In this document: positions 9,257-44,761 of the stretch, piece after piece
Layout: each line of letters opens with the position of its first letter
How positions within the stretch are numbered: the stretch's first letter is position 1
Source of the DNA: Candidatus Woesearchaeota archaeon
GTDB taxonomy: Archaea > Nanobdellota > Nanobdellia > Woesearchaeales > GW2011-AR4
DNA: 64,000 nucleotides
Reading direction: 5' to 3'
Assembly: GCA_016177615.1 (NCBI GenBank)
Contig: JACOUX010000012.1
Coordinates: forward strand, 17,104-81,103
Program-made: the position numbers and the translations under genes
The notes under the pieces: model-generated
The model's database searches: none
The model's input: only the letters and a program-made list of their open reading frames with translations
What the model was told of the DNA's origin: nothing

Positions 9257-9257
9257 T

Positions 9258-12692: not shown

Positions 12693-12703
12693 CTTAATAG
12701 CTC

Positions 12704-13093: not shown

Positions 13094-13102
13094 TTTCTCA
13101 CC

Positions 13103-13333
13103 TTAACTGTATTTCTTGAATCCAAGGCTTATGGCTATCTCCCTAAAGCAAGTCCTGCACAAGTCAAGATTGTATTTTCCGATATGGCCGCCTGGCCTGC
13201 CGCATCTTTTGCATTTTTTTGTGAATCTTCCGTACTTCCTCGGCTTTGGCGCATTATTCTTTATGTATTTCTGCAGCTTTGGCGGCTTCGCCTTAAGCTG
13301 CTTGAAAACTTTCCTGTAGTCGCTGTATGTCAT
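13103..13333 (-). CDS. rps14: Ribosomal protein S14 (uS14), zinc-ribbon type
   Basis: [25 protein letters not shown] with an N-terminal basic extension. Confidence 0.9.
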
Positions 13334-14535: not shown

Positions 14536-14536
14536 C

Positions 14537-14914
14537 TCATTTCCTCCCAAGGATGCCCTGCCTTAGCTTGTCGTCCATGTTCAATTCTAAAATCATCAGG
14601 TTCGAAGGGTGCAGCGGAACGTGCAGTTTAGAGCCGTCTTTTTTTGGCAACTCAACACCGCTGATGAATACCCTTAAGCTTTTCAGGTCTATATTTTCCA
14701 CTTTGCCTTCCTTTTTCCTGAATTTCCCGGCAATTATCATAACTTTATCGCCTTTCCTCAGGCCTATGCTCCTTTTGCCGTGTTTTTTCCTTAGCTCTTT
14801 TGAAAGGTGTGAATGTGCAAGCTTCTGCTTTATGTTGAGAGGTGATTTAAACCTGTATTTTCTTTGCTTCACGGGCTTCCTGCTGCTTTTCCAGTATTTT
14901 GAAAATTGTTTCAT
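14537..14914 (-). CDS. rpl24: Ribosomal protein L24 (uL24)
   Basis: KOW motif LRKGDKVMIIAGKFRKKEGKV. I prefer the ATG at 14914 (MKQFSKYW), 9 nt after the L14 stop. The track start 14971 would overlap L14 by 49 nt. Confidence 0.88.
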   Translation of the reverse strand: MKQFSKYWKSSRKPVKQRKYRFKSPLNIKQKLAHSHLSKELRKKHGKRSIGLRKGDKVMIIAGKFRKKEGKVENIDLKSLRVFISGVELPKKDGSKLHVPLHPSNLMILELNMDDKLRQGILGRK

Positions 14915-14922
14915 TTGATTGT

Positions 14923-15324
14923 CTAAACCACTACGCTGGCTATTTTTGCGATTCCGGGCCATCTTTCGCATGCTTCTTTTGCTATCGCGCCCTTGAATAT
15001 GGTGCCTTTTGGATTGCCCTTGTCGTCCTTTAAAACAACGGCAGAGTTGTCTTCAAACTTTATCCTTGTTCCATCTGGCCTTCTATATTCTTTCTTTTGC
15101 CTTACAATTATTGCATACACCACTTGTTTTCTCATATCGGGCCTTCCTCTTATGACAGACGCCTGGACCAAGTCAGCAACGCCGCAGCTTCCAATCCTTC
15201 CTTTTACCGTCTTGAGGCCTACTACAGTGAATACCTTGAGCACTTTTGCACCTGAATTGTCACAGGTCTCAATCTTGCATCCGACTGGAAGCCCTCTGGT
15301 TACTCTTGATTTTAGCGGCTGCAT
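14923..15324 (-). CDS. rpl14: Ribosomal protein L14 (uL14)
   Basis: LPVGCKIETCDNSGAKVLKVFTVVG...RRPDGTRIKFEDNSAVVL. Confidence 0.95.
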   Translation of the reverse strand: MQPLKSRVTRGLPVGCKIETCDNSGAKVLKVFTVVGLKTVKGRIGSCGVADLVQASVIRGRPDMRKQVVYAIIVRQKKEYRRPDGTRIKFEDNSAVVLKDDKGNPKGTIFKGAIAKEACERWPGIAKIASVVV

Positions 15325-15335
15325 TTTTATTCCAC

Positions 15336-15776
15336 TTACTCCGTTTCCCCTGTACTTATTTCCTCTTTAGGATGTACCTGCACCTTGGAAGCTTCCCTTG
15401 CCCCCATTCTTTCCTTGAATCCTTTTTCAAGGCCAACCTTTTTGACAATAACAAGGTTCTTTGTCTTGCTTAATGGCCTACACTCCATGGCCATGACAAT
15501 CTCGCCATCCTTGGCGCTGACGCAGTCAGGATTATGAGCCTTTAAATTAGTCCTTCTTTTTTCATACCTTTCATATTTTAGCAGGAAATGCAGCCTTTCA
15601 AACTCTATTACGGCTGTCCTTCTCATCTTTGTTGATATGACTACTCCAGTAAACTGTCTCCCCCTTACGCTCAATTTCCCGTGGAACGGGCAATTGCTGT
15701 CATGGCACTCCTGCCTTGGAGCCTCAACATTAACCCCTATGTTTCTTGCTTCTGTCACTTTCTTCTCGAGTTCCAA
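15336..15776 (-). CDS. rps17: Ribosomal protein S17 (uS17)
   Basis: CPFHGKLSVRGRQFTGVVISTKMRRTAVIE...ECRPLSKTKNLVIV. Confidence 0.93.
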   Translation of the reverse strand: MELEKKVTEARNIGVNVEAPRQECHDSNCPFHGKLSVRGRQFTGVVISTKMRRTAVIEFERLHFLLKYERYEKRRTNLKAHNPDCVSAKDGEIVMAMECRPLSKTKNLVIVKKVGLEKGFKERMGAREASKVQVHPKEEISTGETE

Positions 15777-15814
15777 AATACTTTATGCGATTGGCTCTGC
15801 AACATTCATGCAAA

Positions 15815-16123
15815 CTATTTCAATTCAATGCTGCCAGGCGCAAACCCGTAATCGACCAAAATTTTCTTTGTCCTCTGTTTGTGCTCACCCTGAAGCTCAA
15901 TCTTCCCGCCTTTTATCGTGCCGCCGCAGGCAAGCATGGACTTAAGCCTTTTTGCAAGGTCTTTAAGGTCGATTTCCTTGGAGTCGATGCCTTCAATAAT
16001 TGTATAGTTCTTGTTGAACTTCTTCCTCTCGATATACACCAGTATCTTCTGGCTCTCTTTGGCTATTGTCTCGCAAACGCACAGCTCTTTCACCAAGCCG
16101 CATACAGGGCATATTTCACTCAT
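15815..16123 (-). CDS. sui1: Translation initiation factor aIF1 / SUI1
   Basis: N-terminal CPVCG...CVC knuckle plus the SUI1 core (KILVYIERKKFNKNYTIIEGI...LKSMLACGGTIKGGKIELQG). Confidence 0.9.
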   Translation of the reverse strand: MSEICPVCGLVKELCVCETIAKESQKILVYIERKKFNKNYTIIEGIDSKEIDLKDLAKRLKSMLACGGTIKGGKIELQGEHKQRTKKILVDYGFAPGSIELK

Positions 16124-16128
16124 TCCTT

Positions 16129-16329
16129 TTATGTGCCTCCTTTTTGCTTTTCATTGCTGATTGTGATTATTCTTGCAATTGTGCGCTTTATCTCCCTTAC
16201 TTTCCCGGGGCTTTTAGGGGCTGTTCCAATGGCTATCTGTGAGTTGACCTTCATCAGCTCTTTCCTTAATTCCATTATCTTGTTTCCTAAATCAAGATCA
16301 TTCATTGCCCTAAGCTCTTTGGCCTTCAT
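16129..16329 (-). CDS. rpl29: Ribosomal protein L29 (uL29)
   Basis: MKAKELRAMNDLDLGNKIMELRKELMKVN. I prefer the internal ATG at 16329. The track start 16374 overlaps S3 by 65 nt. Confidence 0.88.
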   Translation of the reverse strand: MKAKELRAMNDLDLGNKIMELRKELMKVNSQIAIGTAPKSPGKVREIKRTIARIITISNEKQKGGT

Positions 16330-17029
16330 CTTTTTTCTTCCTCTTCCTCTTTGGTTTTTCTGAAGCTTTTCCATTATTCGCTCTGCTTTCGGCGCTTGGT
16401 TTGGATTCTTCTCTCTTCAATTCAGGCGAGTCCTTTCCGTCAACCAGCTCTATATCATCAGGCAGCCGAATGTCTGGCGGCATTATGCTTACCTTGACTC
16501 CAACGATGCCTGTTTTCAGCTGAGCCTGCAATCTGGCTCTTTTTACTCCCTCTGCCACATCTCCGCATTTCTTTAGATAGCCCTGGTAAAAGCGCCAAGA
16601 CTTGGCTCTTGCGCTCGGGACCTTTCCGCTGATTACAATCTCAATTCCCAAGGCTCCTGCCCTCATCACATCAGTCATTATTCTGTGACCTATTGCCTTG
16701 AATTTTTCTGAGCCAAATTTTTCGAGCGCGTCAACAATCTTCTCAGCGACAATATTTGCGTCAAGATTTGGAGTTTCCACTTCGCTTATCTCTATCTGGG
16801 GATTCTCAAGCTCAAACCTTTTCTTCAGGTTTCTTGTCAATTGCTTGATGTTCTGGCCTTTTCTTCCAACAATCAGCCCGGGCCTTGACGAGTATATAAC
16901 CACCTTCTCGCCAAGAGGAGTCTTGAGCATCTTTGTATGGCTATGGCCTACATTATCCAGGCTTTGCGTTATATATTCCTCTATCTGAAACTCTTTCATC
17001 TTTTGTGCGACGAACTTCCTCTCAATCAT
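16310..17029 (-). CDS. rps3: Ribosomal protein S3 (uS3) with a basic C-terminal tail
   Basis: KH domain GLIVGRKGQNIKQL. The C-terminus KPKRKRKKKDEGQRA forms an extension. Confidence 0.94.
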   Translation of the reverse strand: MIERKFVAQKMKEFQIEEYITQSLDNVGHSHTKMLKTPLGEKVVIYSSRPGLIVGRKGQNIKQLTRNLKKRFELENPQIEISEVETPNLDANIVAEKIVDALEKFGSEKFKAIGHRIMTDVMRAGALGIEIVISGKVPSARAKSWRFYQGYLKKCGDVAEGVKRARLQAQLKTGIVGVKVSIMPPDIRLPDDIELVDGKDSPELKREESKPSAESRANNGKASEKPKRKRKKKDEGQRA

Positions 17030-17463
17030 TTTTTATTTTCCTCGGCAATCAGCTCTATATTTGTCCTCTTCATCTTTCTTCTTGTCTTTCTCCCGTAATG
17101 CCATGCTTTTCCGCCTTTGTGCGCGCTTATGTGGGCTATGACAAGATTTGAGGTATTCAGCCCTTTGAACTGCGCATTTGCCTCTACAGATTCAAGAAGC
17201 TTGATGATGTAGCTTGACGCCTTTTCAGGATATCTTCCGGGACCGGTTTCCTTCTTATGGCCGAGGTCCCAGTTGTACCTCTTGAAGGGTATTGCAGTTT
17301 TTTTCTCGGAAACTCGCTGTAAAATTTTTTTTGCGTCGCTTATTTTCTTACTCTCTATAAAGCTGCATATCTCGACACTCTGCTTAAATGAGATCGGCAA
17401 TGCCATTCCGACTGCCCTTGCCATGTGCTCGCCATTGTATCCTTTGAAGGTGTAACCTTTCAT
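17026..17463 (-). CDS. rpl22: Ribosomal protein L22 (uL22)
   Basis: Position between S19 and S3. AHISAHKGGKAWHYGRKTRRKMKRTNIE. Confidence 0.92.
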   Translation of the reverse strand: MKGYTFKGYNGEHMARAVGMALPISFKQSVEICSFIESKKISDAKKILQRVSEKKTAIPFKRYNWDLGHKKETGPGRYPEKASSYIIKLLESVEANAQFKGLNTSNLVIAHISAHKGGKAWHYGRKTRRKMKRTNIELIAEENKK

Positions 17464-17464
17464 T

Positions 17465-17848
17465 TTACTTCACCGACAAGCTTGCGCTTGACCTTGTTGC
17501 GCCGATTCCTGGCGCGCTGTGCGCAACTTTCTTCCTCGTTAATGCAAACTCGCCAAGATAATGGCCGACCATTTCCGGCCCTATTGCCAAAAGGACAAAT
17601 TCCTTGCCCTGATGAACCTTTATCGAGGATCCTATCATCTCGGGCAGTATTATCATGTCCCTGCAATGAGTCTCTATATTTTTTTCATTGCCCCTTATTT
17701 TGCCGAGCAGTATTTTCTGCTGCTCAGTAAATCCTCTCTTCAGGCTTCTTCTTTGCCTTGCCGTGAGAAGCTGGGCAAGCTCATTCAGGCTCATGCTCTT
17801 CAGCTCTTCTGCTGTCTTTCCCTTGAATGTGAATTCCTTTTTTGCCAT
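17465..17848 (-). CDS. rps19: Ribosomal protein S19 (uS19)
   Basis: [39 protein letters not shown]. Confidence 0.94.
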
Positions 17849-17855
17849 TTTTTAT

Positions 17856-18575
17856 TTACCTTTTTCTCCTTCCGGACCTTTTTGGGGCTATGTTGCCGAC
17901 CTTTCTTCCTGGAGGCGAGTTTCTTGCAGACTGGGTTGGAATTCCCTTTGCGTGCGAGCTTCTGCCTCCAAACGGATGGCTCACCGAGTTCATTGAGGTG
18001 CCGCTTACATTCGGCCACACCTTGTTTCTTGCAGTCTTTGCATAAAACTTGTTGCCTGCTTTCAGGAATGGCTTATCAGTTCTGCCAGAGCCTGCAACGA
18101 CACCTATTGCGGCCCTGCACTCGGGCAAAAATGTGCGCCTTTTGCTTGATGGCAGCTCGACAAGTATTCCATTTTCCATTTTTGTAATGACCCTTGCAAA
18201 AGCGCCATTTGTCCTTGCAAACTTTCCCCCGTCTCCGGGACTTGATTCAATATTGTAAATTTGCGTGCCTTCCGGGATGCTCTTCAGCGGCAGAATATTT
18301 CCTGGCTTAAGCTCTGCATTATCGCTCATCTCTATCATATCGCCTGTTTTTATTCCTTCAGGCGCCTGGAGCAATCCAATTTCTCCATTACTGTACTTCA
18401 ATTCTATCAGTGGCGCAAAATGGCCGCTGCTGTGCACTATGTCCTTTACTTCTGCGCTCATAAGCTTGCCGCACTCCAATCTTGCAAAGCCTACTTCACC
18501 TTTATATCTGAAGCTTGGTGCCCTATATCTTGGGCCTCCTTTGCCCCTCTTCTGCTGAATTAAGCTTTTTCCCAT
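17856..18575 (-). CDS. rpl2: Ribosomal protein L2 (uL2)
   Basis: GTQIYNIESSPGDGGKFARTNGAFARV...MNSVSHPFGGRSSHAKG. Confidence 0.95.
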   Translation of the reverse strand: MGKSLIQQKRGKGGPRYRAPSFRYKGEVGFARLECGKLMSAEVKDIVHSSGHFAPLIELKYSNGEIGLLQAPEGIKTGDMIEMSDNAELKPGNILPLKSIPEGTQIYNIESSPGDGGKFARTNGAFARVITKMENGILVELPSSKRRTFLPECRAAIGVVAGSGRTDKPFLKAGNKFYAKTARNKVWPNVSGTSMNSVSHPFGGRSSHAKGIPTQSARNSPPGRKVGNIAPKRSGRRKR

Positions 18576-18599
18576 GAATAGTTCACCTTAAATACAAAA

Positions 18600-18872
18600 T
18601 CACATCAGACCAAGATTAGTAGCTATGTCAATAGCCGGATTCTTGGCTGAAAATTTGACATAAGCCCTTTTCTCGCCATCCTGGCTGACAAAAGTGTTTA
18701 CATCGTCAACTTCAACTTTAAACATGTCCTCTATCGCCTTCTTGATCTCCCTTTTGGTTGAGGCGCCGCTTACCACAAATACGAGCTTGTTCTCTGACTC
18801 CATAAGCCTTATCGATTTTTCCGTTGAAAGCGGGTGCTTGACGATTTTGTGTGGGTCCATATTAGCAACCAT
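18600..18872 (-). CDS. rpl23: Ribosomal protein L23 (uL23)
   Basis: KHPLSTEKSIRLMESENKLVFVVSGASTKREIKKAIEDMFKVEV. Confidence 0.93.
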   Translation of the reverse strand: MVANMDPHKIVKHPLSTEKSIRLMESENKLVFVVSGASTKREIKKAIEDMFKVEVDDVNTFVSQDGEKRAYVKFSAKNPAIDIATNLGLM

Positions 18873-18873
18873 A

Positions 18874-19680
18874 TCAGCAAAATAATTTTTTTTCTTTCAT
18901 GTCATTTAATGCGCTGCTGGTCCAAATTGTAATCCTTCCTGGCTTTCCGCCTGGAGCGAGCAGCTCTGCATTGAGGTTTTTGGCCTCGACAACGTCTATG
19001 CCCGGGATGTTTGAGGCTGAATATGCCATTTTCCCAAGCTCCGAGACCACTATCAAAGGCCCTTTTTTTTTCTTGTACTTCCTGCCTCTTGACTTGCCCT
19101 TTCCTGCGCGAACATTCTTGTGCGAAGCCCTATCAAGCTCGTGCTCAAACCCAAGCTTCACTAGGGCATCTATTACTTTTGCTGTCTTGTCCAAGGACTC
19201 GAATTTTTCATCCAATGCAAATGGATAATTTTCAGGCGGAATGTGTCCTCTTGCGGCAGCAGACTCCCTGGAAATGGTGGCTGCTATTGCGCTCCTTATT
19301 GATTTCATTCTTTCCTTGTCGTTTATTTTTTTAATCCATATCTTTTCTGATTTTGGAGGATGAGCTCTTCTGCCTCCCACAGTGCCAGGGGCAAAAGCCC
19401 CTACCCAGTTCATCCTTGTGCCTCTTCTTGTCATTATCTTTCTTGGCACCCTTGATATCCCTATTCCGTATGAGCCCCTGTATTTTCTTCTTCTCCTTGA
19501 AAGCTTTGCTGCAGGCCTTTTCCCTGCAAGCCTGCTTGCGGCATAAGGCTGCCTCTTGTTGCTTTGGACAGCCAGCACAGCCCTTTGTATGAGGTCTGGC
19601 CTGAATTCCTCGCTAAACTGGCTAGGCAATTCAACATCTCTGATTTTCTGCCCCGATAAGTCTAAAATACTTATTTTCAT
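18874..19680 (-). CDS. rpl4: Ribosomal protein L4 (uL4)
   Basis: RRGTRMNWVGAFAPGTVGGRRAHPPK. Position between L3 and L23. Confidence 0.94.
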   Translation of the reverse strand: MKISILDLSGQKIRDVELPSQFSEEFRPDLIQRAVLAVQSNKRQPYAASRLAGKRPAAKLSRRRRKYRGSYGIGISRVPRKIMTRRGTRMNWVGAFAPGTVGGRRAHPPKSEKIWIKKINDKERMKSIRSAIAATISRESAAARGHIPPENYPFALDEKFESLDKTAKVIDALVKLGFEHELDRASHKNVRAGKGKSRGRKYKKKKGPLIVVSELGKMAYSASNIPGIDVVEAKNLNAELLAPGGKPGRITIWTSSALNDMKEKKLFC

Positions 19681-20649
19681 TTACCTTCCCTGCTTTGACT
19701 CTAAGCTTGTATATGAAATTTGAGGAACCTGCATCTCGCTCTTCGGCCTGATAGGCTCTGTAATTCTGACAAGCATCTTTTTTGGGCCTGCAACTGATCC
19801 CTTGATGAGCACAAAAGTGTTTTTTACAGCTCCATAATTCAAATAGCCACCTTTTACATTTATGTCATTTGGGTTGCTGCCTATCTTTACAACCCACTTG
19901 TTGTACTCTGTCCTCAAATGGTTTCCCATCTTCCCCGCATGCGCTGTTCTCCACATGATATGTCCCTGGGCATTCCATGCCCCCAATGAGCCCGGGTTTC
20001 TCCTGCTTTTTTCTGATTTGTGGTGCCTCAATGTAACTCCAAATCTTCTTACAGGGCCCTGGAAGCCCTTGCCTTTTGTCACTGAATGAATGTCAACCTG
20101 GCTGCCTTCCCTGATAGATTCATTGACATTGATTTCTTTCCCCAGTTTTTCCTTTGCGTATAAAAGCTGCTGCTCCTTGCTGCCGCCTATTGCAAGCTCG
20201 AACATTTCAGGTTTTTTCTTGCCTATACCTGTCAGGCTTGGCTGCGTCGAGCACAAAATCCTTAAAAAATCAAAATCTTCAGGATGTGCACCTTTTTTCT
20301 TAGGAATTGTTATTTTCCTTTCAAGACTTTTATCGAGAGAATCAGAAAACAATTGAGAAACAAGCCTTGAGCCGAATTGGGTTTTTTTATAAAACATGAG
20401 GGAAATGGCCTTGACGGGAGGGCACTCCAGCACGGTAGTCGGGCAGAAAATGTCTGTGCCTTTTGTCATTGACGTTGCTTTGTTGTCGCTGATAAGCAGG
20501 TGGGTCATGCCGACCTTGTATCCTGCAAATCCCAATGGCTTTGCATCTTTGCTTGATGCCCATGTTCTTACCCTTGCATAGCTGTATCTGGACCTGGCTC
20601 TTGGCCAAAACTGCATGCTTCCTGCCCTTGGTGCTCTTGTTCTCGGCAT
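19681..20649 (-). CDS. rpl3: Ribosomal protein L3 (uL3); first gene of the supercluster
   Basis: PRAGSMQFWPRARS...GYKVGMTHL...TKGKGFQGPVRRFGV. Confidence 0.95.
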   Translation of the reverse strand: MPRTRAPRAGSMQFWPRARSRYSYARVRTWASSKDAKPLGFAGYKVGMTHLLISDNKATSMTKGTDIFCPTTVLECPPVKAISLMFYKKTQFGSRLVSQLFSDSLDKSLERKITIPKKKGAHPEDFDFLRILCSTQPSLTGIGKKKPEMFELAIGGSKEQQLLYAKEKLGKEINVNESIREGSQVDIHSVTKGKGFQGPVRRFGVTLRHHKSEKSRRNPGSLGAWNAQGHIMWRTAHAGKMGNHLRTEYNKWVVKIGSNPNDINVKGGYLNYGAVKNTFVLIKGSVAGPKKMLVRITEPIRPKSEMQVPQISYTSLESKQGR

Positions 20650-34759: not shown

Positions 34760-37700
34760 TTGGTATTTAAGAGATATATAAAAAAGCACGGCAAAAAGCT
34801 AGGGCCATACTACTACGAGAACGTCAGGGGTCATGACGGCAAAGTAAAATCTATTTATCTTGGGGTAAACCCGAATCACCATGTTAAGCATAAAGTCAGG
34901 AAGCCGTTGTTTTTTGTAATCCTAATTCTGGTATTGATCTTGATATTGGGCTCTGTTCTTTTTGTAATGCAAAATAAATCTTATCTCTTCAGTAAGGCAA
35001 GCGCACAGGAGCCGGATTTTGACATTGACCAGATCCTGCTGAAAGTGCTTGTAAGGAGCGGTGAATTCATAGATAAGCAGATAAGAATCATGAACACAGG
35101 AAATGAGCTTTCCAGCATAAAAGTCGAAGTTTCGGGCTTGTCTGATATAGTGAAGATTGATGATTCTTCCTTCTCCCTAAAACCCGGGCAGACTAAGGTT
35201 ATAAGCCTGAATTTCTCATCTTACCTGCCGCAGGACAAGATTGAGCAGCAGCCAGGAGTTTACATTGGCAAATTGATTGTTTCATCTGACAAGGCATCAA
35301 AGGAAATTCCGATAATCGCCGAGATTGAAACAAAGAACGTGCTTTTTGACATGAACTTGAATCCTGTTGCAATTGAGAGAAAGGTAAAGCAGGGCTCAGA
35401 CACAACAATTGAGGTGCGCCTTTTTAACCTGGAAAGTATAGAGTCCCAGAATGTTGATGTGGAATATTTTGTCAAAGACATCAACGGCAATACCATAGTT
35501 TCAGAAAGCGAAACTGTCGTTGTAAAAACCCAGGCATCCTTTTTCAAGACTCTTTCCATTCCAAAAAACCTGAAGCCGGGCCCATATATTTTTGCGGCAA
35601 TCACAAAATTCGGCAAATCAGTAGGGACTTCAAGCTATATGTTTGAGGTAATCGGGCCTGAGGAGAAGGGTTTCCTCCAGTTCTGCAAGAGCAGCATACT
35701 GTGCATGGGAATATCATTTACAACAATACTGCTGATGTTCGCATTGATGGCCTACCTATATTTCTTCTTTGGAGCCTATCTTTACGAAAAGTTCACTGGA
35801 GCGACAGCAAAAAAACCGAAGCCGAAAAGATTTGTGGATTATAAATTTAGGGAAGATGCAGCCGAACAAAGGGCAGGCTTCTTTAATAGGGTCCAAGACA
35901 GGATTGATCTGTGGAAAGAAAAGAGAAGGCAAAGAAGGGCTGAGAAGGACAAGCTGGAAATCAAGAAAGAATTGGAGCAGCTTAAAAGGCAAAGAAGGTT
36001 GGAGATTGAAAGGAAAAAGAGTGCATTAGAAGAGGAAAGAATAAGGCAGGAAGCATTAAGAAAGCTTGAAGAAGAGCAAAGGAAAAAGCAGCTGCAGGAT
36101 GCAAGGCTAAAGCTGCTGGAGCTTAGAAGGCAGGAAGAGCTCAGGAAAAAAGAGGAGCTGGAGAGAAAAAAAGCAGAAGAGGAAGAGGCAAAGCAGGAGC
36201 TTGAGGAGAAAAAGCTCAGGGAGATCGAGGAAAAACAAAAAGAGGAAGAAAAAAGGCAGAAGCGCCAGAAAAGAAAAAAGAAAATCAAAGACTTTTTGCG
36301 CAGGATTAGCCTTTACAAGGCTCCTGAAGAAAAAAAGCAGGCAGCATTGCAGAAAGAGAAAGAAAGGCTGGAAAGCCTGAAGAGGGAAAATGAGCTGCAG
36401 AGGCAAAGAAAGGCTGGACGAATTAAAATTGCCTTGAAGAAGTCAAAAAATCTCGATAAATTCCAATCCATATTAAGCGAAGCAAAAAAAGCTGTAGAAA
36501 CAGAAAATATTTCAAGGCTAGACAGGATTTATTTGAAGGCAAGCGAGCTCTATACGGCTTTGGATAACCGGGAAAAACAGTCGGTTTATGCTGACTTGAT
36601 GAAGCTATACGAGCAAAGAAACAGGCTTGCTAGGCAGCAGAAGATTGAGGAAGAGCTTCAAAAGAAAGAAGATGTGAAAAATAGAAAGGATGAAGAGGAA
36701 AGAAAAAAGCAGGAAGAAAGGTTGAAGAAGCAGGAAAAGCTTGAGAGAGCAAAGTTATGGAAAAAAAGGCGGGGAAAAGCCAAGGCATTCTTGCACAGGT
36801 TTGGCCTGTATAAGACTCCTGAAGAAAAAAAGCAGGCAGCATTGCAGAAAGAGAAAGAAAGGCTGGAAAGCCTGAAGAGGGAAAATGAGCTGCAGAGGCA
36901 AAAAGAGGCTGAGGAGAAAAGAAAGAAGGAAGAGGAGAGAAAAGAGCTAAAGGATGAAAAAGAAAGCAAGAAAAGGGAAGCAAGAAAACTGGAAGAGCAG
37001 AAAAAGCTGGCTTTGGAGGAGGAAAAGGGAAAGAGGGATGATATTGAAAGGGAGAAAAAGCAGAGAGAGCGAGAGGAGAAGCAAAAGGAATCACAAAGGC
37101 TGGCTGAAGAAAAGGCAAAAGCCATGCAGCTCGAGATTTCCAAGGAGATTGGGTCAAGGCTGGAAAAGAATAGGGCAGATAAAGAAATCCTTAGAAAAAA
37201 GCTGGAGGGGATTGAGGCTGACGAAAAATTATACGGCAGCAAATTTGGAGAGATTGAAGACAGGCTTGAAGGGATAGAACACGATATTATAACAAAGTCA
37301 AAAGCTCACAGCGACCTGAAGCTGCAGAAAAGCTCTTTGCTTGAAAAGCGCAATGCGCAAATTAAAGAATTTGAAAACAGGCTCAAAGAGGAAAAAAAGG
37401 CAATAAGCGCAAAAATCAAACAGGCAAAGGAAATGCTGGCCGAGAAAGAAATTGGTTTGATGAAAAAAGCCGAGGAGGAACTGGAAAAACTGGGCCCTGA
37501 AAAAAGGAAAACCTCGGAAAAATGGAAAAGGATGGAGGTCAGGGCAAAAATAAAGCTGGAAGAGCAGGCCTTGAAAGACGAGCTGAAGGTTGATGAGGGA
37601 AAAGAAGAGGACGAAACCAAAAAGTCAGAGGGTGAATACAAAAAAGCCGTCAAGGAACTGAACAGCAGGTTAAGCGGATTAAGGCAGGAGCTTGAAGAGC

Positions 37701-38080
37701 TAAAGAGCCGGAAAGAGCACTTGCTTGTTGAAAAGAAGCATTTGCCGGATATGCATTCCAGTATGGAAAGAAATGCTAAAAATATAAAAAATGAGATTTT
37801 AGCGCTTGATGCAGAGCATGAAAAGCTTGAATCAGAGCTGAAAAAATCCAAGCCAGCAACATTTGGGCTCTTTACCAAATTCAGGAAGCTAAAAAGCGGC
37901 AAAAGCATAGACAAATTCCGCGCAGCGCTTGAGGGAGCGCTTGAAGCGATAAAGAAGAATGACGTGCAAAAAGCAAAACAACTTTACATGGAAGCAAGAA
38001 ATATTTATGTTGATATGGAATATGATGAAAAGAAGGAAGTTTACAGCGACCTTATGGAGGTTTATAACAAGCTGCTGTGA
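34760..38080 (+). CDS. Giant bitopic membrane protein: N-terminal basic motif, TM1, two beta-sandwich-like ectodomains, TM2, ~750-aa K/E/R-rich coiled coil
   Basis: TTG start, forced by an in-frame TGA at 34751, with a GGGGTGA SD-like element 7 nt upstream. TM helices at aa ~50-70 and ~312-342. Contains internal repeats. I cannot name a family. Confidence 0.6.
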   Translation: MVFKRYIKKHGKKLGPYYYENVRGHDGKVKSIYLGVNPNHHVKHKVRKPLFFVILILVLILILGSVLFVMQNKSYLFSKASAQEPDFDIDQILLKVLVRSGEFIDKQIRIMNTGNELSSIKVEVSGLSDIVKIDDSSFSLKPGQTKVISLNFSSYLPQDKIEQQPGVYIGKLIVSSDKASKEIPIIAEIETKNVLFDMNLNPVAIERKVKQGSDTTIEVRLFNLESIESQNVDVEYFVKDINGNTIVSESETVVVKTQASFFKTLSIPKNLKPGPYIFAAITKFGKSVGTSSYMFEVIGPEEKGFLQFCKSSILCMGISFTTILLMFALMAYLYFFFGAYLYEKFTGATAKKPKPKRFVDYKFREDAAEQRAGFFNRVQDRIDLWKEKRRQRRAEKDKLEIKKELEQLKRQRRLEIERKKSALEEERIRQEALRKLEEEQRKKQLQDARLKLLELRRQEELRKKEELERKKAEEEEAKQELEEKKLREIEEKQKEEEKRQKRQKRKKKIKDFLRRISLYKAPEEKKQAALQKEKERLESLKRENELQRQRKAGRIKIALKKSKNLDKFQSILSEAKKAVETENISRLDRIYLKASELYTALDNREKQSVYADLMKLYEQRNRLARQQKIEEELQKKEDVKNRKDEEERKKQEERLKKQEKLERAKLWKKRRGKAKAFLHRFGLYKTPEEKKQAALQKEKERLESLKRENELQRQKEAEEKRKKEEERKELKDEKESKKREARKLEEQKKLALEEEKGKRDDIEREKKQREREEKQKESQRLAEEKAKAMQLEISKEIGSRLEKNRADKEILRKKLEGIEADEKLYGSKFGEIEDRLEGIEHDIITKSKAHSDLKLQKSSLLEKRNAQIKEFENRLKEEKKAISAKIKQAKEMLAEKEIGLMKKAEEELEKLGPEKRKTSEKWKRMEVRAKIKLEEQALKDELKVDEGKEEDETKKSEGEYKKAVKELNSRLSGLRQELEELKSRKEHLLVEKKHLPDMHSSMERNAKNIKNEILALDAEHEKLESELKKSKPATFGLFTKFRKLKSGKSIDKFRAALEGALEAIKKNDVQKAKQLYMEARNIYVDMEYDEKKEVYSDLMEVYNKLL
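36321..36407 (+). repeat. 87-bp perfect intragenic direct repeat, copy 1
   Basis: Identical to 36816-36902 at a 495-bp (165-codon, in-frame) offset. Encodes PEEKKQAALQKEKERLESLKRENELQRQ. Confidence 0.9.
36816..36902 (+). repeat. 87-bp perfect intragenic direct repeat, copy 2
   Basis: See copy 1. Confidence 0.9.
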
Positions 38081-39328: not shown

Positions 39329-39748
39329 ATGCAATACACCTTCCATGCATACGGCCATCCTGACATTCTCGGGACCCATAAAACAACACTGGAGTTCACG
39401 AAAGAAAAAGAGGTTACCCTGAATGGGAACTGCATCATCGGAGTTTGTGCAGATTTTGATTTTGATAAGCTGACGGAATTTATTAAAAAGGCCAGATCCA
39501 CAAAGATAACAATAAATGTCCATACAAGAGATAAAAAAATAAAAGAAATGATAAATGCAGAATTGAATCTGGATTTCAGCCATAACGAAGAGATTGTAAT
39601 AAGAAAGACTAATTTTATTTCTCAGAGGACTTTAGCAATAAAAGCAAACAAGGCTGCATTTGATTTAAACAGGCAGTTAATTGAGTTTTTAAAAGAAAAA
39701 CAGAATGTGATAGGTGTTGTAATGGTTTCTGAACGCCAATTTGAATGA
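39329..39748 (+). CDS. Conserved archaeal hypothetical protein (DUF371-like)
   Basis: A ~139-aa protein with HGHPDILGTHKTTLEFTKEKEVTLNGNCIIGV, which resembles my recollection of the DUF371 family. Confidence 0.5.
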   Translation: MQYTFHAYGHPDILGTHKTTLEFTKEKEVTLNGNCIIGVCADFDFDKLTEFIKKARSTKITINVHTRDKKIKEMINAELNLDFSHNEEIVIRKTNFISQRTLAIKANKAAFDLNRQLIEFLKEKQNVIGVVMVSERQFE

Positions 39749-39814
39749 TTGAACTTGATTAAAGCAACAGAGTCTCTGGCTTTTTATTCGGTCACGAGCT
39801 TTCGAGACGCATAG

Positions 39815-39824
39815 TTTTTTAAAT
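39815..39824 (+). promoter_or_regulatory. Candidate TATA-like box for the 39936-44312 cassette (would give a ~90-nt leader)
   Basis: TTTTTTAAAT follows a T-run after the DUF371 stop. Two strong SD-like elements lie downstream. Confidence 0.3.
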
Positions 39825-39935
39825 GAAGACCTCGTATATGGTCCGTTGGGTACTGGTCTGTTCTGTACAAAAAAGGAGGTGAAACTTATAGATTTGAGCC
39901 TGCATATGTAAGGCTTTAGGAGGAACGTAAAGGTC

Positions 39936-41369
39936 ATGGAGTTATTCGGATTTAGAAGCAGTTTGCCGCAGGATTATGAAGAGAAAGCTGCTCTTGGGAT
40001 TGTTGTTGAAAATGGAATTATTTCTAGGAATACGCCACAGCCGTCCCATATAGCAAAAGTATTAGGAGAGCCTGCTGTCGATTCATATTACTTTATGCAT
40101 GCCTTGTTTCATGCCTTGGAAGGCGGGTTTGGAAGAAACAGGGGCTTTTTTGACTACGCCAGAAGGGACCACATAGCCATACAAAAGCACTCATTCAGCG
40201 CAGCGTTCAAGCCATATTACAGGCTTAACCGTAAACCATTTCCATCAAGGTATGTGCTTACAACAAGAGGGGTTGTAGGCAATCTGATACATGATATTCC
40301 AGAAGAGCACGGCCAAACACCTATTGGAGCTCTGATAGACATAGCCATAATACGGTATCTGCTTGGGGATACTGCCGGGACTGACGCAGATTTGCATACA
40401 AAGCATGGAATTTTAATTGTGGATTCAATAGAAGATAGGCTCAAGGAATTCAGCCCAATCAATCACGAAAATGTCTCTAAGCTTTTGGATACACAGCGGG
40501 GTAAAGTAGATGTTAAGCAAGGTAGCGTCCGTTATCATTACAATCAAGTATTGGGTTCGTTGCTTAAGTTTAAGGATTACGTTGAATTGAATGTAAATCC
40601 CAAAACTGAAGGCGTGCCGTCTCCGCAAAGCATGCCGCCTCAGGAAAAAAAACTGTTAATGGATATCATAATGAAATTATACAGCGGCGTGAATATGCAA
40701 ATGAAAGCCCGAGAATTGCCGGATGCCGCAAGTTTGAAATGCACTTTAACTAAAAATTATGATGAGATATTAGATTTGATGGCAAGACATGACTACATAC
40801 CTGTTGATGAAAGCCTTCTCTTGAAAAGGGATCCGGTGTTTTTATTGACGCTTAAAAAAACGCTTTATTACGCTTCATTAAGAAAAATGGCGAAAAAGGC
40901 CATGGAAGACGCGAAGCTTGCATTAGCAGGATGCCAGGTCATCGAGGATTCTTACGATTCTACAATGGTACAGTCTATTTCAGAATCCATCGGAACTATC
41001 GCTACCATGGATGTCAATAATCTCCATCATGCAACAAGCATTTACAGAAAGGCAAGAGGAAAAATAAATGTTGGCATCGAATTAGTTAAGGAGTTAAGCG
41101 GGCTAGGGGTGCCATATGAAACATTGAGGCTTGCTGTTGACTATGAGTACAGGACTCTAGAAGACAGGATAAAAAGCAGCATTAGTACATTCAGGAGAGA
41201 TGCTAAAGGAGAAACTGATTGGAACATTTATCTTAATGCTTTTTCCTTAATGAGCAAGAAACTGAAAAAGATGAGGTCTGATGTAAAACGGATGAAACAT
41301 CTTAGCACTGGGGGGCCATCACGAAAAAGAGTTCGTGGAATAATCACAAGAATGTCACAATTCCTATGA
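39936..41369 (+). CDS. Hypothetical protein; the N-terminal ~180 aa carry SpoT/Rel-hydrolase (HD)-like motifs, the rest is helical and unknown
   Basis: ATG preceded by AGGAGG. Motifs are H79/H85 ... LIHDIPEEHG (117-126) ... IEDRLKEF (165-172), colinear with H...HDxxED...ADRxHN of RSH hydrolase domains. Confidence 0.55.
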   Translation: MELFGFRSSLPQDYEEKAALGIVVENGIISRNTPQPSHIAKVLGEPAVDSYYFMHALFHALEGGFGRNRGFFDYARRDHIAIQKHSFSAAFKPYYRLNRKPFPSRYVLTTRGVVGNLIHDIPEEHGQTPIGALIDIAIIRYLLGDTAGTDADLHTKHGILIVDSIEDRLKEFSPINHENVSKLLDTQRGKVDVKQGSVRYHYNQVLGSLLKFKDYVELNVNPKTEGVPSPQSMPPQEKKLLMDIIMKLYSGVNMQMKARELPDAASLKCTLTKNYDEILDLMARHDYIPVDESLLLKRDPVFLLTLKKTLYYASLRKMAKKAMEDAKLALAGCQVIEDSYDSTMVQSISESIGTIATMDVNNLHHATSIYRKARGKINVGIELVKELSGLGVPYETLRLAVDYEYRTLEDRIKSSISTFRRDAKGETDWNIYLNAFSLMSKKLKKMRSDVKRMKHLSTGGPSRKRVRGIITRMSQFL

Positions 41370-41388
41370 TTTGAGGAGCTTTAAAAAA

Positions 41389-43671
41389 ATGCTAGCGCCA
41401 TTTGCTTTGATCAGCGAGGATGCACAAAACTATCTTATTAGCTTCCATGTAGTAAGGGAAGCATTTAGAAGAGGGGAGCTTCCGCCTCAAGAGTTAATGG
41501 ATTTTCTTTATGAATGGAGAGAAGCAGGACTCCTTTCAGAAGCCTATGCAGAGGAAGCCAGGCACAGCGAAAAGAATCTTGAAAGGATAATACAGCTTGC
41601 CGTCAGCGCGGTGAGCCGTGATACAAAATCCAGGACTAAGAAAACTGTTTTGACTGCTGACGGTGAAAAAGAAGCTGATTCGTACGAGCATGGTCATACT
41701 TCAAACATATATTATATCTTAAAGAGGATAAAGGAAGAAGCTGATTTTTGGCTTAAATCCATCGCAACGATAAACGACCAGTCAGAAACGGGCGCATTTG
41801 ACCAGAAGGGCTTCAGAATAATTGTTGAAAGCCCTAAAGCAAGGGAGTTCCGGTCCAGGAGGGGCTTTGAAGATTTAAGCAAAGAAGAAAAAGAAAGGTT
41901 CAAAGCCTTATTTCATGGATTAAAATTCTCCGAGCTTTCATCTCATGAAAAGGAAAAATTTTACAAAGCTTTTACAGTTGAGTACATGGGCCTGACAGAT
42001 GGTGAAAAGAGAAAATACAAAGCCAATTTCCAGGAATCACACAGAAAAATGTGTTTGGATCTTGCTAGCAGGATTGCAAGAGCCAGAATGTACGACACTA
42101 TACCCATAAACCCGCATTACATGAGACTGGACAATCTTGAAATGAGAGTCCAAAGGCAGGTTATTGGTGATCCCAACGGAAAAATGCTTCTTGAATTTGA
42201 ATACTTATTGAACAGGGGTAAAGGCAGCGATATCGGGTTTTATGAAACTCTGCTCCATCTGCTCCAAAAAGCTTCCCAGCAGGTACTAAGCAAAAACGGG
42301 AGAACTGCAGAATATATTGATCTCGCAGGAAGAAAAGCATATCTTGTAAATCTTGGAAATCTTGTAGTAAATTTTCATTTTTACGAAAGCTCTGATTCAT
42401 TTTCAGGCTTGGATATAGAAAACTTATCAGAAATCATTGATAAACGCTACAGAACCGCATTGAAAAGATTTTCTGATAAAGATATGGGGAAAAGAGAAAC
42501 CAGAATAATGGAGTATACAAGAATTGGCATGGAGAATATTCCATTGGGGCTTTTTATTTTTCCTGAAACAACAACAACTGATCTTATGAGCAAGTATCCT
42601 GACATGAAATTTGACGAATCGCATACCTTCGATACTTTCATCAAAGATCGAATTGGGCCAAATGCCGAGTCAAATGGGTATGAAAATCTGAAGCTTTTCC
42701 TGTCTTTTAACTCAACTACAAAAGAGATAAGCGGGGAGTGCCAGATAAGAGACACGATAATGGATTATGATGCCGAATTTGGAGTGGCATCCAAGTTCAG
42801 GACAGTGGAAGGCCACATATCCGAAAAGATACGAAGGTCAAAAAGAGGCGTTGCGGTTATTAGCGATAAGGATATTGAATTTGGCAATGCTTTTTTTCTC
42901 TCTGGGGAAGAAAACAATCAAATGTTTTCCCGAATTTATTCTGATTTCTACGCGAGATCTATTTTGGAGATTGCAGAAGAGATTGCAAAAATAGAGGTTA
43001 TAACAAAAGAGCAAAAGAAATTTAAAGATTTGTTTGAAAGAATCATATGTTTATACGCCGAGGCCAAAGACCGGGTAAACCCAAATGATTTTGAGTTAGT
43101 ATCTTCGTCCATAAACTCAGTTTTTGTTAAATATGTAAGGGAGCGTGGCATTGGCATACTTTCTTACCATGACAGCCTTTGGGAGATCAATGAAAAATTC
43201 AGGAAAGTTGCAGATCTTGGCGCTAAGCTTAATGTTTTTGCTGCCATAACAGATTTGGACGAGGTTATGCACAGAAGGCATATCGACATGCTGTATAATT
43301 CTTTCATTCAGATGTCCGCAAGTGCGAGCGAGCACAATGCCGTTACCTCGCTTGCTTTGGAAACACTGATTATGAATTATAATAAACGTTATGGAAATCA
43401 TGTTCCTACAAGCGTGCAAAACGCATATAGGCAAAGGATGCAGGAATTTTTCGAATCGGCAGGATGGAGGCTTTTGAAATTTGGAGGCAAGAATGTGGGG
43501 CATTTGCCACATAAACTTCATAAAAATATGAGCCCTCAGAAGACCAGGCAATTGATTTCTGAAGGCGGAATTGATGTCTCAGCAGAGAGCCCTTTGATGC
43601 AGTTTGATGCTGAGACTATTGGAAATATGGAGAGGATATATCGGATATTCCAAGGATACTTGAAGAAGTAA
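41389..43671 (+). CDS. Hypothetical large protein with a divergent RelA/SpoT-type (RSH) nucleotide pyrophosphokinase-like core split by a ~285-aa insertion
   Basis: ATG at 41389 with GAGGAG ~9 nt upstream; the track start is a TTG at 41371. Four colinear RSH synthetase motifs, described in the findings. Confidence 0.6.
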   Translation: MLAPFALISEDAQNYLISFHVVREAFRRGELPPQELMDFLYEWREAGLLSEAYAEEARHSEKNLERIIQLAVSAVSRDTKSRTKKTVLTADGEKEADSYEHGHTSNIYYILKRIKEEADFWLKSIATINDQSETGAFDQKGFRIIVESPKAREFRSRRGFEDLSKEEKERFKALFHGLKFSELSSHEKEKFYKAFTVEYMGLTDGEKRKYKANFQESHRKMCLDLASRIARARMYDTIPINPHYMRLDNLEMRVQRQVIGDPNGKMLLEFEYLLNRGKGSDIGFYETLLHLLQKASQQVLSKNGRTAEYIDLAGRKAYLVNLGNLVVNFHFYESSDSFSGLDIENLSEIIDKRYRTALKRFSDKDMGKRETRIMEYTRIGMENIPLGLFIFPETTTTDLMSKYPDMKFDESHTFDTFIKDRIGPNAESNGYENLKLFLSFNSTTKEISGECQIRDTIMDYDAEFGVASKFRTVEGHISEKIRRSKRGVAVISDKDIEFGNAFFLSGEENNQMFSRIYSDFYARSILEIAEEIAKIEVITKEQKKFKDLFERIICLYAEAKDRVNPNDFELVSSSINSVFVKYVRERGIGILSYHDSLWEINEKFRKVADLGAKLNVFAAITDLDEVMHRRHIDMLYNSFIQMSASASEHNAVTSLALETLIMNYNKRYGNHVPTSVQNAYRQRMQEFFESAGWRLLKFGGKNVGHLPHKLHKNMSPQKTRQLISEGGIDVSAESPLMQFDAETIGNMERIYRIFQGYLKK

Positions 43672-43697
43672 GCTTAATTTTTATCATTCAAAATAAA

Positions 43698-44312
43698 ATG
43701 AAATTAATAATAACTTCCAATTCATCTATAGACATGATTGCTGCTGAGCTAAATGGAAATGAGCCAGGGCTAGTGGTGTTGCCAGAAGGCTGTTGGGATG
43801 GAAATGAAAGGGTTCCTGATGAATTTATAGATGCAACACGTGAGCGTCGTGTGAGCATAATTGGAACCATGTGCACTGGGCAAGGCTATGATGTTGCTTA
43901 TTTGTTGAAGGGCGGCTCAGTAAAACCTGTGGCTATATACTTCCAAGGGCTGGGAGAAACTACAAAATCCGGCATATTAAGAATGCATGCAGAATTTGAA
44001 GCGCCGCATGATGTCTCTCCCACCAATGACCCAATTCTGGCAATCATCAGGCAGTGCAGCGAAATCTATAGCGGCTCTGCTCCCAGCAACCGCAAAGTAG
44101 ACTTGCTTTGTGTGCCTTCCTCGATAGACCATGCGCTGCATGATGGCACAAGAAAAATAATAGTAGACAATCATAGAGCAAGCGTTTCCGAAAGAACCCT
44201 GATGTTGCAGCCAGTGTTGTCTGACATTTACGGAAGCGGAATTTTCAGGCTTCCGGATTTTAAGAGATTTGGAGAGCAAAAAGACCAGTATATAGTGCAT
44301 AGTTATAGTTAA
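43698..44312 (+). CDS. Hypothetical protein with weak carbon-nitrogen hydrolase (nitrilase-superfamily)-like motif order
   Basis: GLVVLPEG (Glu motif), YDVAYLLKGGSVKPVAIY (Lys-region analogue), ILAIIRQCSEIY (Cys motif) and VDLLCVPSS follow the order and spacing of the CN-hydrolase fold. The protein is short (204 aa) and the Lys is uncertain. Confidence 0.45.
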   Translation: MKLIITSNSSIDMIAAELNGNEPGLVVLPEGCWDGNERVPDEFIDATRERRVSIIGTMCTGQGYDVAYLLKGGSVKPVAIYFQGLGETTKSGILRMHAEFEAPHDVSPTNDPILAIIRQCSEIYSGSAPSNRKVDLLCVPSSIDHALHDGTRKIIVDNHRASVSERTLMLQPVLSDIYGSGIFRLPDFKRFGEQKDQYIVHSYS

Positions 44313-44761
44313 ACCATAATCCTTCTAGTCTTGCTCACATAATTCAATATCCTCCCATTGGAATATTTCCCGCTTCCAAGAAAATCATTCTTGTTTTTAA
44401 GGATTACAAAGCCGCTACAATCATTGCATTCCTTCTCCAAATTCTCACCTTTAAACCATCTTTTAGCTTCTTCTTCGTCAAGCTCAACTATATTTTTCGT
44501 CGCATGAAGTCCGATAATCTGGCTGCCTTCAATGCTTAGCCTTATTCCAAGCTTGTCCATCTCGCAGAAGTACATGCCTGCAGAGTTCAAACGAAGTTTT
44601 GAAGTGTCTATTTTTGAGATGTCTTTGCTTACTATAAAAACCCTGTTCTTATTGTTTTGAAGAAACCCGCAATCCAGCTTTATTTTTGTGCCCCACTGCT
44701 CCTCGATTAATTCATAAATTTCTTTTATATCCTTATTGTTCAGTATTTTTAATTCAGGCAT
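44309..44761 (-). CDS. NIP7-like / PUA-domain ribosome-biogenesis protein (UPF0113-like)
   Basis: About 150 aa. The N-terminal domain is followed by a PUA-like C-terminus (GFVILKNKNDFLGSGKYSNGRILNYV). Lies downstream of aIF5B. Confidence 0.55.
   Translation of the reverse strand: MPELKILNNKDIKEIYELIEEQWGTKIKLDCGFLQNNKNRVFIVSKDISKIDTSKLRLNSAGMYFCEMDKLGIRLSIEGSQIIGLHATKNIVELDEEEAKRWFKGENLEKECNDCSGFVILKNKNDFLGSGKYSNGRILNYVSKTRRIMV

Follow-up and report, generated by a model that had tools for sequence, protein, structure and literature searches.

The locus described here lies in a 64,000-nt stretch of DNA (referred to below as the window; contig JACOUX010000012.1, positions 17,104 to 81,103 of the forward strand) from the metagenome-assembled genome (MAG) of a tiny groundwater archaeon of Candidatus Woesearchaeota and comprises three co-directional, tightly packed genes on the plus strand, designated here A, B, and C (Table 1). 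An earlier reading of this DNA made without database searches (the sequence-only reading) had described three packed open reading frames (ORFs) of these lengths, with a DUF371-like gene upstream and a convergent NIP7-like gene downstream, and all of these coordinates held in our analysis; the downstream gene, which carries a PUA domain, overlaps the end of gene C at a shared TTAA (44309–44312) and is followed by an aIF5B-like gene. The products of A, B, and C are all named "hypothetical protein", and each of the nine related proteins that we looked up has this name or none at all. We found that the product of gene B is very probably a pyrophosphokinase of the RelA/SpoT fold whose active site is intact and which carries a large insertion and an additional C-terminal domain; no other ORF resembling a RelA/SpoT homologue (RSH) was found in the 64-kb window.

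Table 1. Features of the three-gene cassette and its flanks; positions are those of the window, and residue numbers refer to the encoded proteins.
Feature	Position	Strand	Remarks
DUF371 gene	39329–39748	+	Left boundary of the hotspot, conserved; Pfam 1.3e-34
Putative TFB recognition element (BRE)/TATA-like archaeal promoter element, upstream of gene A	39811–39824	+	ATAGTTTTTTAAAT; alignment of six DUF371–A intergenic regions
Purine-rich 5′ leader block of gene A	39875–39903	+	GGAGGTGAAACTTATAGATTTGAGCCTGC; includes the first Shine-Dalgarno (SD)-like GGAGG (39875–39879); conserved in six loci
SD-like AGGAGG of gene A	39918–39923	+	12 nt ahead of the ATG; read from the sequence
Gene A	39936–41369	+	477 aa; NCBI HYS31_01935, named "hypothetical protein"; belongs to the "Afam" type among A-slot genes; helical throughout by prediction
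HD-type signature block of A	40161–40307	+	R76-R77, H85, H119-D120, E123-E124 (RRx7H...x33...HDxxEE)
SD-like GAGGAG of gene B	41373–41378	+	Within the 19-nt A–B spacer, 10 nt before ATG 41389; read from the sequence
Gene B	41389–43671	+	760 aa; NCBI HYS31_01940/MBI1935176.1, "hypothetical protein"; long form of the B slot
Synthetase domain of B, N-terminal half (residues ~83–156)	41635–41856	+	Syn1, R113-x-K115...K123; Syn2, D138-QKGFR...E147
Insertion splitting the catalytic domain of B (residues ~157–385)	41857–42543	+	Family conservation and AlphaFold2 (AF2) model
Synthetase domain of B, C-terminal half (residues 386–482)	42544–42834	+	IKDRIGPNAESNGYENLK (Syn3); E450-C-Q452-IRD (Syn4); AEFGVAS; PF04607
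C-terminal, mostly helical domain of B (residues 493–760, ~270 aa)	42865–43668	+	β-hairpin at residues 694–706
Gene C	43698–44312	+	204 aa; HYS31_01945, named "hypothetical protein"; one among several alternatives for the third slot
PUA-domain (NIP7-like) gene	44309–44761	-	Right boundary of the hotspot, conserved; convergent with the cassette; Pfam PUA 4e-10

The sequence-only reading had placed the four motifs of the RelA/SpoT synthetase in gene B in their proper order with an interruption of ~285 aa, and Pfam, hhalign, residue conservation, and an in silico splice test all agreed with this assignment. The motifs are R113-x-K115...K123, D138-xx-G-x-R, G430-Y-E-N-L-K, and E450-x-Q452-x-R; we take D138 and E450 to be the equivalents of Rel D264 and E323. 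The distance between the DxxGxR and GY motifs is ~285 aa, and the synthetase (SYNTH) domain is hence not contiguous, unlike the usual domain, which spans ~110–200 aa in all; the size of the insertion was estimated at ~225–285 aa. As a single sequence, B scored 22.5 bits against Pfam RelA_SpoT (PF04607), below the cut-off of 27 bits, with a match of residues 424–477 (numbered from the TTG start) to profile positions 57–107 of 113. Two relatives were found in a word-indexed search of 5.8 billion proteins, and an exhaustive HMMER search of 1.84 billion representatives yielded a family of 25 members, ~17 of them full length at 740–883 aa. Four divergent homologues, each scored singly, exceeded the gathering threshold of Pfam (42.6, 34.7, 31.0, and 28.4 bits), and in these the match was always confined to the C-terminal half of PF04607. 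An alignment of 18 sequences at 20–45% identity contained only seven invariant columns, including K115, D138, E450, and Q452; K123 and E147 were at least 90% conserved. The profile built from these 18 sequences matched residues 290–344 of Escherichia coli SpoT (93% probability, E = 2.8e-7 in hhalign), covering the SpoT motifs GYQSLH, VEVQIRT, and AEMGVAAHW, and also matched L002_B, a sister-locus protein that is RelA_SpoT beyond doubt (E = 2.3e-5).

For the splice test, residues 161–385 of B were deleted in silico in ten family members and the products were rescored against PF04607. Eight of the ten then matched the profile from position 1–4 to position 107–112, and the spliced B protein of the window scored 27.1 bits, with a match that starts at R113 (profile position 2). 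In control splices, the true N-terminal half was exchanged for a stretch of the same length taken from the insertion or the C-terminal domain; seven of these eight matches were confined to profile positions ~48–112, none reached the start of the profile, and all scores were lower. The gain in score on splicing was modest (1–8 bits) yet specific, and we attribute the failure of standard hidden Markov models (HMMs) to detect this family to the splitting of its SYNTH domain by the insertion. An AF2 model based on the 18-sequence alignment (mean predicted local distance difference test score [pLDDT] of 87.4; predicted template modelling score of 0.81) places the N-terminal half as β107–114 (carrying RxK), α117–130 (carrying K123), and β140–146 (following D138), and the overall order of elements, i.e., β-α-β, insertion, β(GYENLK)-β(ExQxR)-α, and helical C-terminal domain, fits the motifs. 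A whole-chain Foldseek search of this model against PDB and BFVD returned nothing at E ≤ 1e-3 and no RSH structure, which is unsurprising because the synthetase domain is interrupted.

In the AF2 model, the insertion consists of Lys/Glu-rich helices (residues 165–231), an eight-stranded β domain (236–331), and further helices (343–377); within the β domain, Q257 is invariant and R253 is at least 90% conserved ("RVQRQ"), and the insertion had no Pfam match. The C-terminal domain, in which Y664 is invariant and Y582 and P707 are at least 90% conserved, had no match in any library searched, and no C-terminal regulatory domains of the TGS or ACT type were detected in B; this domain may have a regulatory or partner-binding role.

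The gene junctions were largely as the sequence-only reading had described them. Its ~185-nt region with strong SD-like elements upstream of gene A corresponds to a leader of 187 nt with two GGAGG elements. A motif that is near-invariant in six aligned DUF371–A intergenic regions (ATA.ATTTTTA.A) is plausibly, to judge by its sequence, an archaeal BRE/TATA element, and the purine-rich block downstream of it (GAGG...A.AGAT...AG.CTG) is kept in the window and in loci L001, L002, L008, L015, and L018, despite an identity of only 25–57% among the A proteins. No consensus RNA structure was found across the six aligned loci, and the leader had no Rfam match and hence contains no known riboswitch or other known RNA; a σ70 promoter and terminator scan gave fewer matches than expected from shuffled sequence, the model being uninformative for an archaeon. 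The stop codon of gene A (41367–41369) precedes two start candidates for gene B, TTG 41371 and ATG 41389, both named in the sequence-only reading together with the GAGGAG; the ATG is to be preferred, as homologues align from that Met and the NCBI protein has 760 aa. In locus L005 the A and B genes overlap. A and B are presumably co-transcribed. The B–C spacer, confirmed at 26 nt, is AT-rich and has no SD sequence, for which reasons gene C may possibly have a leaderless start of its own.

All contigs recovered through homologues of A or B presented the same order, i.e., DUF371, A, B, an optional small gene, and then the PUA and aIF5B genes on the opposite strand. A search of GTDB and JGI collections with the A alignment for related loci gave no relatives. 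Because loci recovered in this way are a biased sample, the survey was re-anchored on the flanking PUA protein, which was searched against GTDB species representatives; this yielded 46 loci, annotated with HMMs, and the counts given here rest on the 33 loci (species) with both flanks on one contig. The interval was empty in five of the 33 species (L024, L045, L046, L051, and L053), with DUF371 and PUA 10–63 bp apart, and these junctions provide clean empty-site references for the hotspot. Two species (L029 and L047) had A without B, and no remnants of B were found there by tblastn; one species had a lone B-slot gene (L044:8481–9626, minus strand) in which the catalytic Glu is replaced by Gly; and one had fragments. 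A co-directional set of A, B, and a small gene was present in ~24 of the 33 species, with 450–580 aa in the A slot, 330–450 or 765–795 aa in the B slot, and 100–280 aa in the third slot. The two A-only loci have in common a small ORF of ~100 aa (L029:~8440–8760 and L047:8464–8769; 46% identical), located between PUA and A.

The genes occupying each slot belong to different families. In the A slot we found Afam (the type in the window), the L014 type (the commonest), and the L005 type; in the B slot, at least four families, namely a long insertion-bearing form, a short and plainly RelA_SpoT form, the L001 type, and a few others; and in the third slot, at least five types. Eight of 19 B-slot proteins matched PF04607 (best E = 7e-18), and homology links the long B form to the short one (95% probability). 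Essentially every combination of A type and B type was present. Two candidate relationships among B-slot proteins were set aside: the L001-type proteins gave only a weak comparison with RelA_SpoT (HH probability of 21%, E = 1e-3) and no Pfam match, and a comparison for an N-terminal module common to the B-slot types gave no support. Signs of decay, seen in some of the short forms, included alteration of the catalytic Glu (to Ser in L036 and L039 and to Asp in L032) and splitting of B into two ORFs (L023 and L042). Between loci, identity was 25–57% for A and 33–38% for B, as compared to 59–81% for the flanks (59–78% for DUF371; for PUA, 70–81% among the closer loci and 43–46% to L014, the most distant). 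The DUF371–PUA interval is thus a hypervariable hotspot in which the cassette may be present or absent and its parts are mixed and matched; the distribution is patchy, as expected of an accessory element, with empty, A-only, dead-B-only, and fragmented sites, yet the cassette always occupies the same chromosomal site. One member of alignment A10 within a PUA–DUF371 interval (candidate L055:8440–9420) encodes a class I Trp/Tyr-tRNA synthetase (PF00579, 2.7e-53), showing that the site can also hold an ordinary housekeeping gene. Several of the GTDB MAGs with this locus (L027, L030, L032, L034, L039, L042, L043, and others; PUA 70–80% identical) have the record title "uncultured Methanosarcinales archaeon", which is probably a taxonomic mislabel.

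Gene A always lies directly upstream of a B-slot gene. The sequence-only reading had reported hydrolase-type HD motifs in this gene, and the residues concerned are indeed present and invariant; no profile method, on the other hand, assigns A itself to the HD family. Only ten residues do not vary among 12 Afam members at 16–42% identity, and H85, H119, D120, and E123 belong to these ten; R76 reaches a conservation of at least 90%, and the six closer members aligned always have an acidic residue at position 124. The other two A-slot types, L014 and L005, are homologous to each other (89% probability) and were combined into a joint profile of a sister family (A9), with the consensus RRxxGxPxxxH...HDxxE...LTR...KxxDRIxN. 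This profile matched residues 13–81 of SpoT, i.e., the HD hydrolase domain, with 95.3% probability (E = 2.1e-8), and 11 of its 12 PDB matches were hydrolase domains of Rel, RelA, SpoT, or MESH1 (best E = 0.004); the commonest A-slot type is therefore homologous to the HD domain of SpoT, and in the locus family a gene for a SpoT-type HD hydrolase is coupled with one for a RelA_SpoT synthetase, the two being encoded as separate and unusually large proteins, as the sequence-only reading had supposed. A single planned hhalign comparison of Afam with A9 gave a weak but collinear match (E = P = 0.0056; HH probability of 6.5%) that puts the signature residues of A onto RR/H118/H156-D157/E160 of A9; a direct comparison of the L005 type with Afam gave no support for homology. 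The spaced motif H-x26–42-HDxxE[DE] occurred in 25 of 665 distinct ORFs (≥150 aa, from all fetched loci), and all 25 were A-slot genes of either type, a count that shows specificity and is not an independent discovery, since the motif was derived from these families. A candidate for the distal metal ligand of the HD fold is found in "KLSESIDT" (E350/T354), which is E/D in the family and lies outside any significant alignment. On balance, it is somewhat more likely than not that gene A encodes a very diverged protein of the SpoT/Mesh1 HD type, a putative enzyme. Within gene A (39971–40022, plus strand), a match to the C/D-box small RNA sR43 scored 19.2 bits against a gathering score of 45 and is most likely due to chance.

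Gene C had been read as having a nitrilase-like order of motifs, and this did not survive comparison. No Pfam match was obtained even at E ≤ 1, CN_hydrolase (PF00795) included, and none in PDB. Only two homologues were found (L004 and L048); in the alignment of the three sequences, E30 ("VLPEG") and C120 ("QCSEI") are invariant, whereas K76, the proposed Lys in the middle, is Glu in L048 and the sole invariant Lys, K133, lies after the Cys, so that the Glu-Lys-Cys order of a nitrilase is not kept. Of the Pfam families proposed by the sequence-only reading for the three genes, RelA_SpoT was thus recovered for B, below threshold, and neither HD_4 for A nor CN_hydrolase for C was. One of the two homologues of C (L004:476–1096) sits between PUA and aIF5B, and the other (L048:8448–9074) is the third-slot gene of a cassette whose A type and B type both differ from those of the window. 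As this family occurs in two different contexts, gene C behaves as an independently moving small gene, and the conserved unit is A–B with an exchangeable third gene; the three-gene cassette of the sequence-only reading accordingly stands in its A–B core, which is syntenic across species, and not in its third slot, which is variable or empty, gene C not being a fixed partner. Occupants of the third slot include two methyltransferase-like families, the family of the window's gene C, two further small families, singletons, or nothing.

RSH enzymes are central to stress signalling in bacteria, and recent work has revealed them as toxins and anti-phage effectors too. The interpretation that we favour, whose chances we put at about even, sees in the locus a "split RSH" module, accessory and fast-evolving, whose A protein works against B, with a role in conflict likelier than one in housekeeping signalling. 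In such a module, A would be translated just upstream of B from the same transcript; B would move pyrophosphate from ATP to a guanine or adenine nucleotide, yielding a (p)ppGpp- or (p)ppApp-like alarmone, or to the 3′ end of an RNA or tRNA, and its inserted module and C-terminal helical domain would probably serve target recognition or regulation. A would remove the product of B, most simply by hydrolysis, or otherwise restrain B, which would be tolerated only together with A; the small third gene would be an exchangeable accessory. That A counteracts B is suggested by the free pairing of A types with any B type and by the dead active site of the only B that lacks an A (L044), and it recalls the rule in bacteria that synthetases do not occur without a hydrolase (PMC3153485). 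A conflict role appears somewhat likelier than a housekeeping one because of the presence and absence of the cassette among species, the shuffling of its modules, its rapid divergence, and its decay.

A number of results weigh against this interpretation. Neither the single sequence of A nor profiles built from 3, 6, and 12 sequences matched anything in Pfam, NCBIfam, PADLOC, PHROGs, or PDB sequences; the hhalign comparison of A with residues 1–200 of E. coli SpoT gave a probability of only 0.4–0.5%, the distal metal ligand of the HD fold (the K..DR..N helix) could not be placed in A, and its AF2 model (from a 3-sequence alignment) had a pLDDT of 39 and was unusable. Neither PADLOC nor PHROGs gave a match, no mobile-element genes or tRNAs were seen near the cassette, and the cassette proteins are far larger than known pairs of toxic small alarmone synthetases (toxSAS) and small alarmone hydrolases (SAH). 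The activity and toxicity of the A–B pair are themselves predictions. Furthermore, the same kind of pair is found in the same position at nearly every occupied site, even in the distant L014 (PUA 44% identical), which looks like long vertical inheritance of a lineage-specific function and not like a mobile defence island. A bolder form of the interpretation, which we consider unlikely, is that the cassette is the first archaeal RSH-based conflict system, in which B shuts down translation or nucleotide metabolism and A, as a cryptic HD hydrolase, reverses the effect; here the insertion or the C-terminal domain of B would sense a virus or a host cue, a toxic alarmone or the 3′-pyrophosphorylation of RNA would follow, and the DUF371–PUA site would be a hotspot dedicated to diversification by recombining hydrolase, synthetase, and accessory modules.

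A physiological alarmone pair stays a serious rival because the position is fixed, most sites are occupied by pairs of one kind, and mobility genes are lacking, although on the whole we regard it as possible but rather unlikely. A and B would in this case be the separated hydrolase and synthetase halves of an RSH enzyme of bacterial origin that jointly control the amount of a (p)ppGpp-like messenger, which in turn tunes translation or growth of the symbiont; they were possibly derived by fission of a long Rel-type gene, as the order of A and B mirrors the order of the HD and SYNTH domains, and the fast divergence would reflect fast evolution in DPANN archaea. The chromosomal position is fixed across many species, the distant one included; the pair is kept in ~24 of the 33 species; and many genes in the vicinity serve translation (aIF5B, the PUA/NIP7-like gene, Trm1, EF-1β, aS21, and RNA cyclase). 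RelA/SpoT has been annotated in 41.7% of Woesearchaeota MAGs (PMC8407392), and the rarity of RSH enzymes in archaea assumed by the sequence-only reading does not apply to this phylum; in bacteria, a synthetase is not found without a hydrolase (PMC3153485), which would explain the pairing without invoking conflict. The five species with an empty site, the A-only and decayed-B loci, and the variation of the third gene speak against this reading, however, as do the shuffling of A types and B types that do not look homologous in all combinations and the much faster divergence of the cassette than of its flanks.

We consider it less probable still that A is a non-enzymatic helical binding partner (e.g., a type II-like antitoxin, a chaperone, or a scaffold), whose "HD" residues would be structural or involved in binding, and that the fold of B possibly serves another transfer, e.g., onto tRNA, rRNA, or protein, with the inserted β-rich domain as the substrate-recognition module. 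The missing HD profile match of A would fit such a partner, as would its size, ~2.5 times that of known small alarmone hydrolases, and the ~500 aa of extra domains on B; several toxSAS enzymes place pyrophosphate on the CCA terminus of tRNA instead of synthesizing an alarmone, no known sequence signature tells these activities apart, and most toxSAS antitoxins are non-enzymatic and cognate-specific (PMC7229694), which would explain co-diversification. Against a pure binder, the pattern H...HD..E accounts exactly for four of the ten residues that are invariant in A, with a conserved acidic residue after it, and the sister A-slot family with the same spaced motif does match the HD domain of SpoT; the free pairing of A and B types also fits a product-degrading partner acting on any synthetase better than a binder with one cognate. 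Finally, the ORFs could be decaying or non-functional lineage-specific filler with motif matches as remnants, in keeping with their uniform annotation as hypothetical proteins and with the split or catalytically dead B genes of some relatives; we regard this as highly improbable, given long intact ORFs that retain invariant catalytic residues at 20–45% identity, the confident fold prediction for B, and the conservation of promoter, SD sequences, and tight coupling or overlap of the genes.

Returning to the favoured "split RSH" module, the sequence-only reading had listed a toxSAS-like system among its options, and by analogy the nearest counterpart so far described is the toxSAS operon faRel of Cellulomonas marina, a three-gene operon which encodes the small alarmone hydrolase ATfaRel, the toxic synthetase FaRel, and AT2faRel (Jimmy et al. 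2020; PMC7229694). In that operon, each of the two genes next to the central toxic synthetase neutralises it, one of the two encoding a small alarmone hydrolase, and SAH enzymes neutralise all toxSAS (PMC7229694). The cassette resembles it in having a synthetase-fold gene at the centre of a tight co-directional three-gene operon (the A and B genes being separated by a short SD-bearing spacer), a flanking RSH-type HD hydrolase partner (putative here), a small third gene without a known domain, and an accessory distribution among genomes; hydrolase partners that act on any synthetase would also fit the free pairing of A and B types observed here. The cassette differs in that its host is a DPANN archaeon, its A and B proteins (477 and 760 aa) are 2–4 times larger, its SYNTH domain is split by ~225–285 aa and B carries an extra ~270-aa C-terminal domain, A is too diverged for HD profiles, the site is one fixed chromosomal hotspot and not a mobile element, and the third gene is exchangeable and often methyltransferase-like. 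Searches with PADLOC and PHROGs placed the cassette in no described toxSAS or small alarmone synthetase subfamily and in no defence-system model.

Long RSH enzymes (Rel, SpoT, and RelA) have the same hydrolase-then-synthetase order and the same motifs, i.e., RxKxxxSxxxK, DxxGxR, GYxSxH, and ExQxRT for B and, for the A slot, RR...H...HDxxED; in the cassette, however, the predicted activities are on two polypeptides, the synthetase is interrupted, and the sequence divergence is extreme. Stand-alone enzymes such as RelQ/RelP, Mesh1, and PbcSpo also have synthetase and hydrolase as separate genes, but these are small, single-domain proteins caught by standard HMMs, whereas the cassette genes are large, multi-domain, operonic, and, in the nine cases looked up, unannotated. 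A possible analogy for the C-terminal helical domain of B is offered by CapRelSJ46, a fused toxSAS in which a RelA/SpoT toxin domain is reportedly followed by a C-terminal regulatory domain on the same polypeptide; no similarity of sequence or fold to it was found, and B differs from it in having a separate upstream partner and a split catalytic domain. A few archaeal stand-alone RSH enzymes, thought to be of bacterial origin, were listed by Atkinson et al. 2011 (PMC3153485).

No paper describing the cassette families was found in a literature search of incomplete coverage, which amounts to absence of evidence only. The insertion-split SYNTH domain with extra domains, the large cryptic HD-type partner, and the single-site mix-and-match hotspot in DPANN archaea appear to be new; the sequence-only reading, which knew of no family with hydrolase and synthetase halves on separate large proteins, was in this sense right about the large proteins and their extensions and not about the separation into genes, which is known from the faRel operon (PMC7229694). 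The locus provides a concrete and testable predicted synthetase/hydrolase pair in archaea and a previously unrecognised architecture in which a catalytic SYNTH domain tolerates an insertion of this size, and it suggests that the RSH content of DPANN genomes is likely under-counted by domain annotation. At this single site, modules have been swapped naturally among three A types, at least four B types, and at least five types of third gene, a series from which one could learn what the extra domains sense and whether given partners can replace one another; if B were to make (p)ppGpp or (p)ppApp, it would give a first direct handle on archaeal alarmone chemistry.

Elsewhere in the window, no tRNAs were found. 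An ORF of 1,106 aa (34760–38080, plus strand) encodes an N-terminal membrane segment and a β-rich region, followed by ~700 aa of Lys/Glu-rich coiled coil with internal repeats (e.g., YKTPEEKKQAALQKEKERLESLKRENELQRQ, present twice), and accounts for the extreme purine skew at 36–38 kb (GC skew of 0.37, AT skew of 0.51). Loci L005 and L008 have ORFs of similar size (1,022–1,156 aa) at the same relative position, the likeness being one of size and position. A tract of ~12 kb (~8000–20000) is uniformly and strongly skewed in the negative direction, both for GC (-0.17 to -0.23) and for AT (-0.25 to -0.35), which suggests one or more giant genes on the minus strand.

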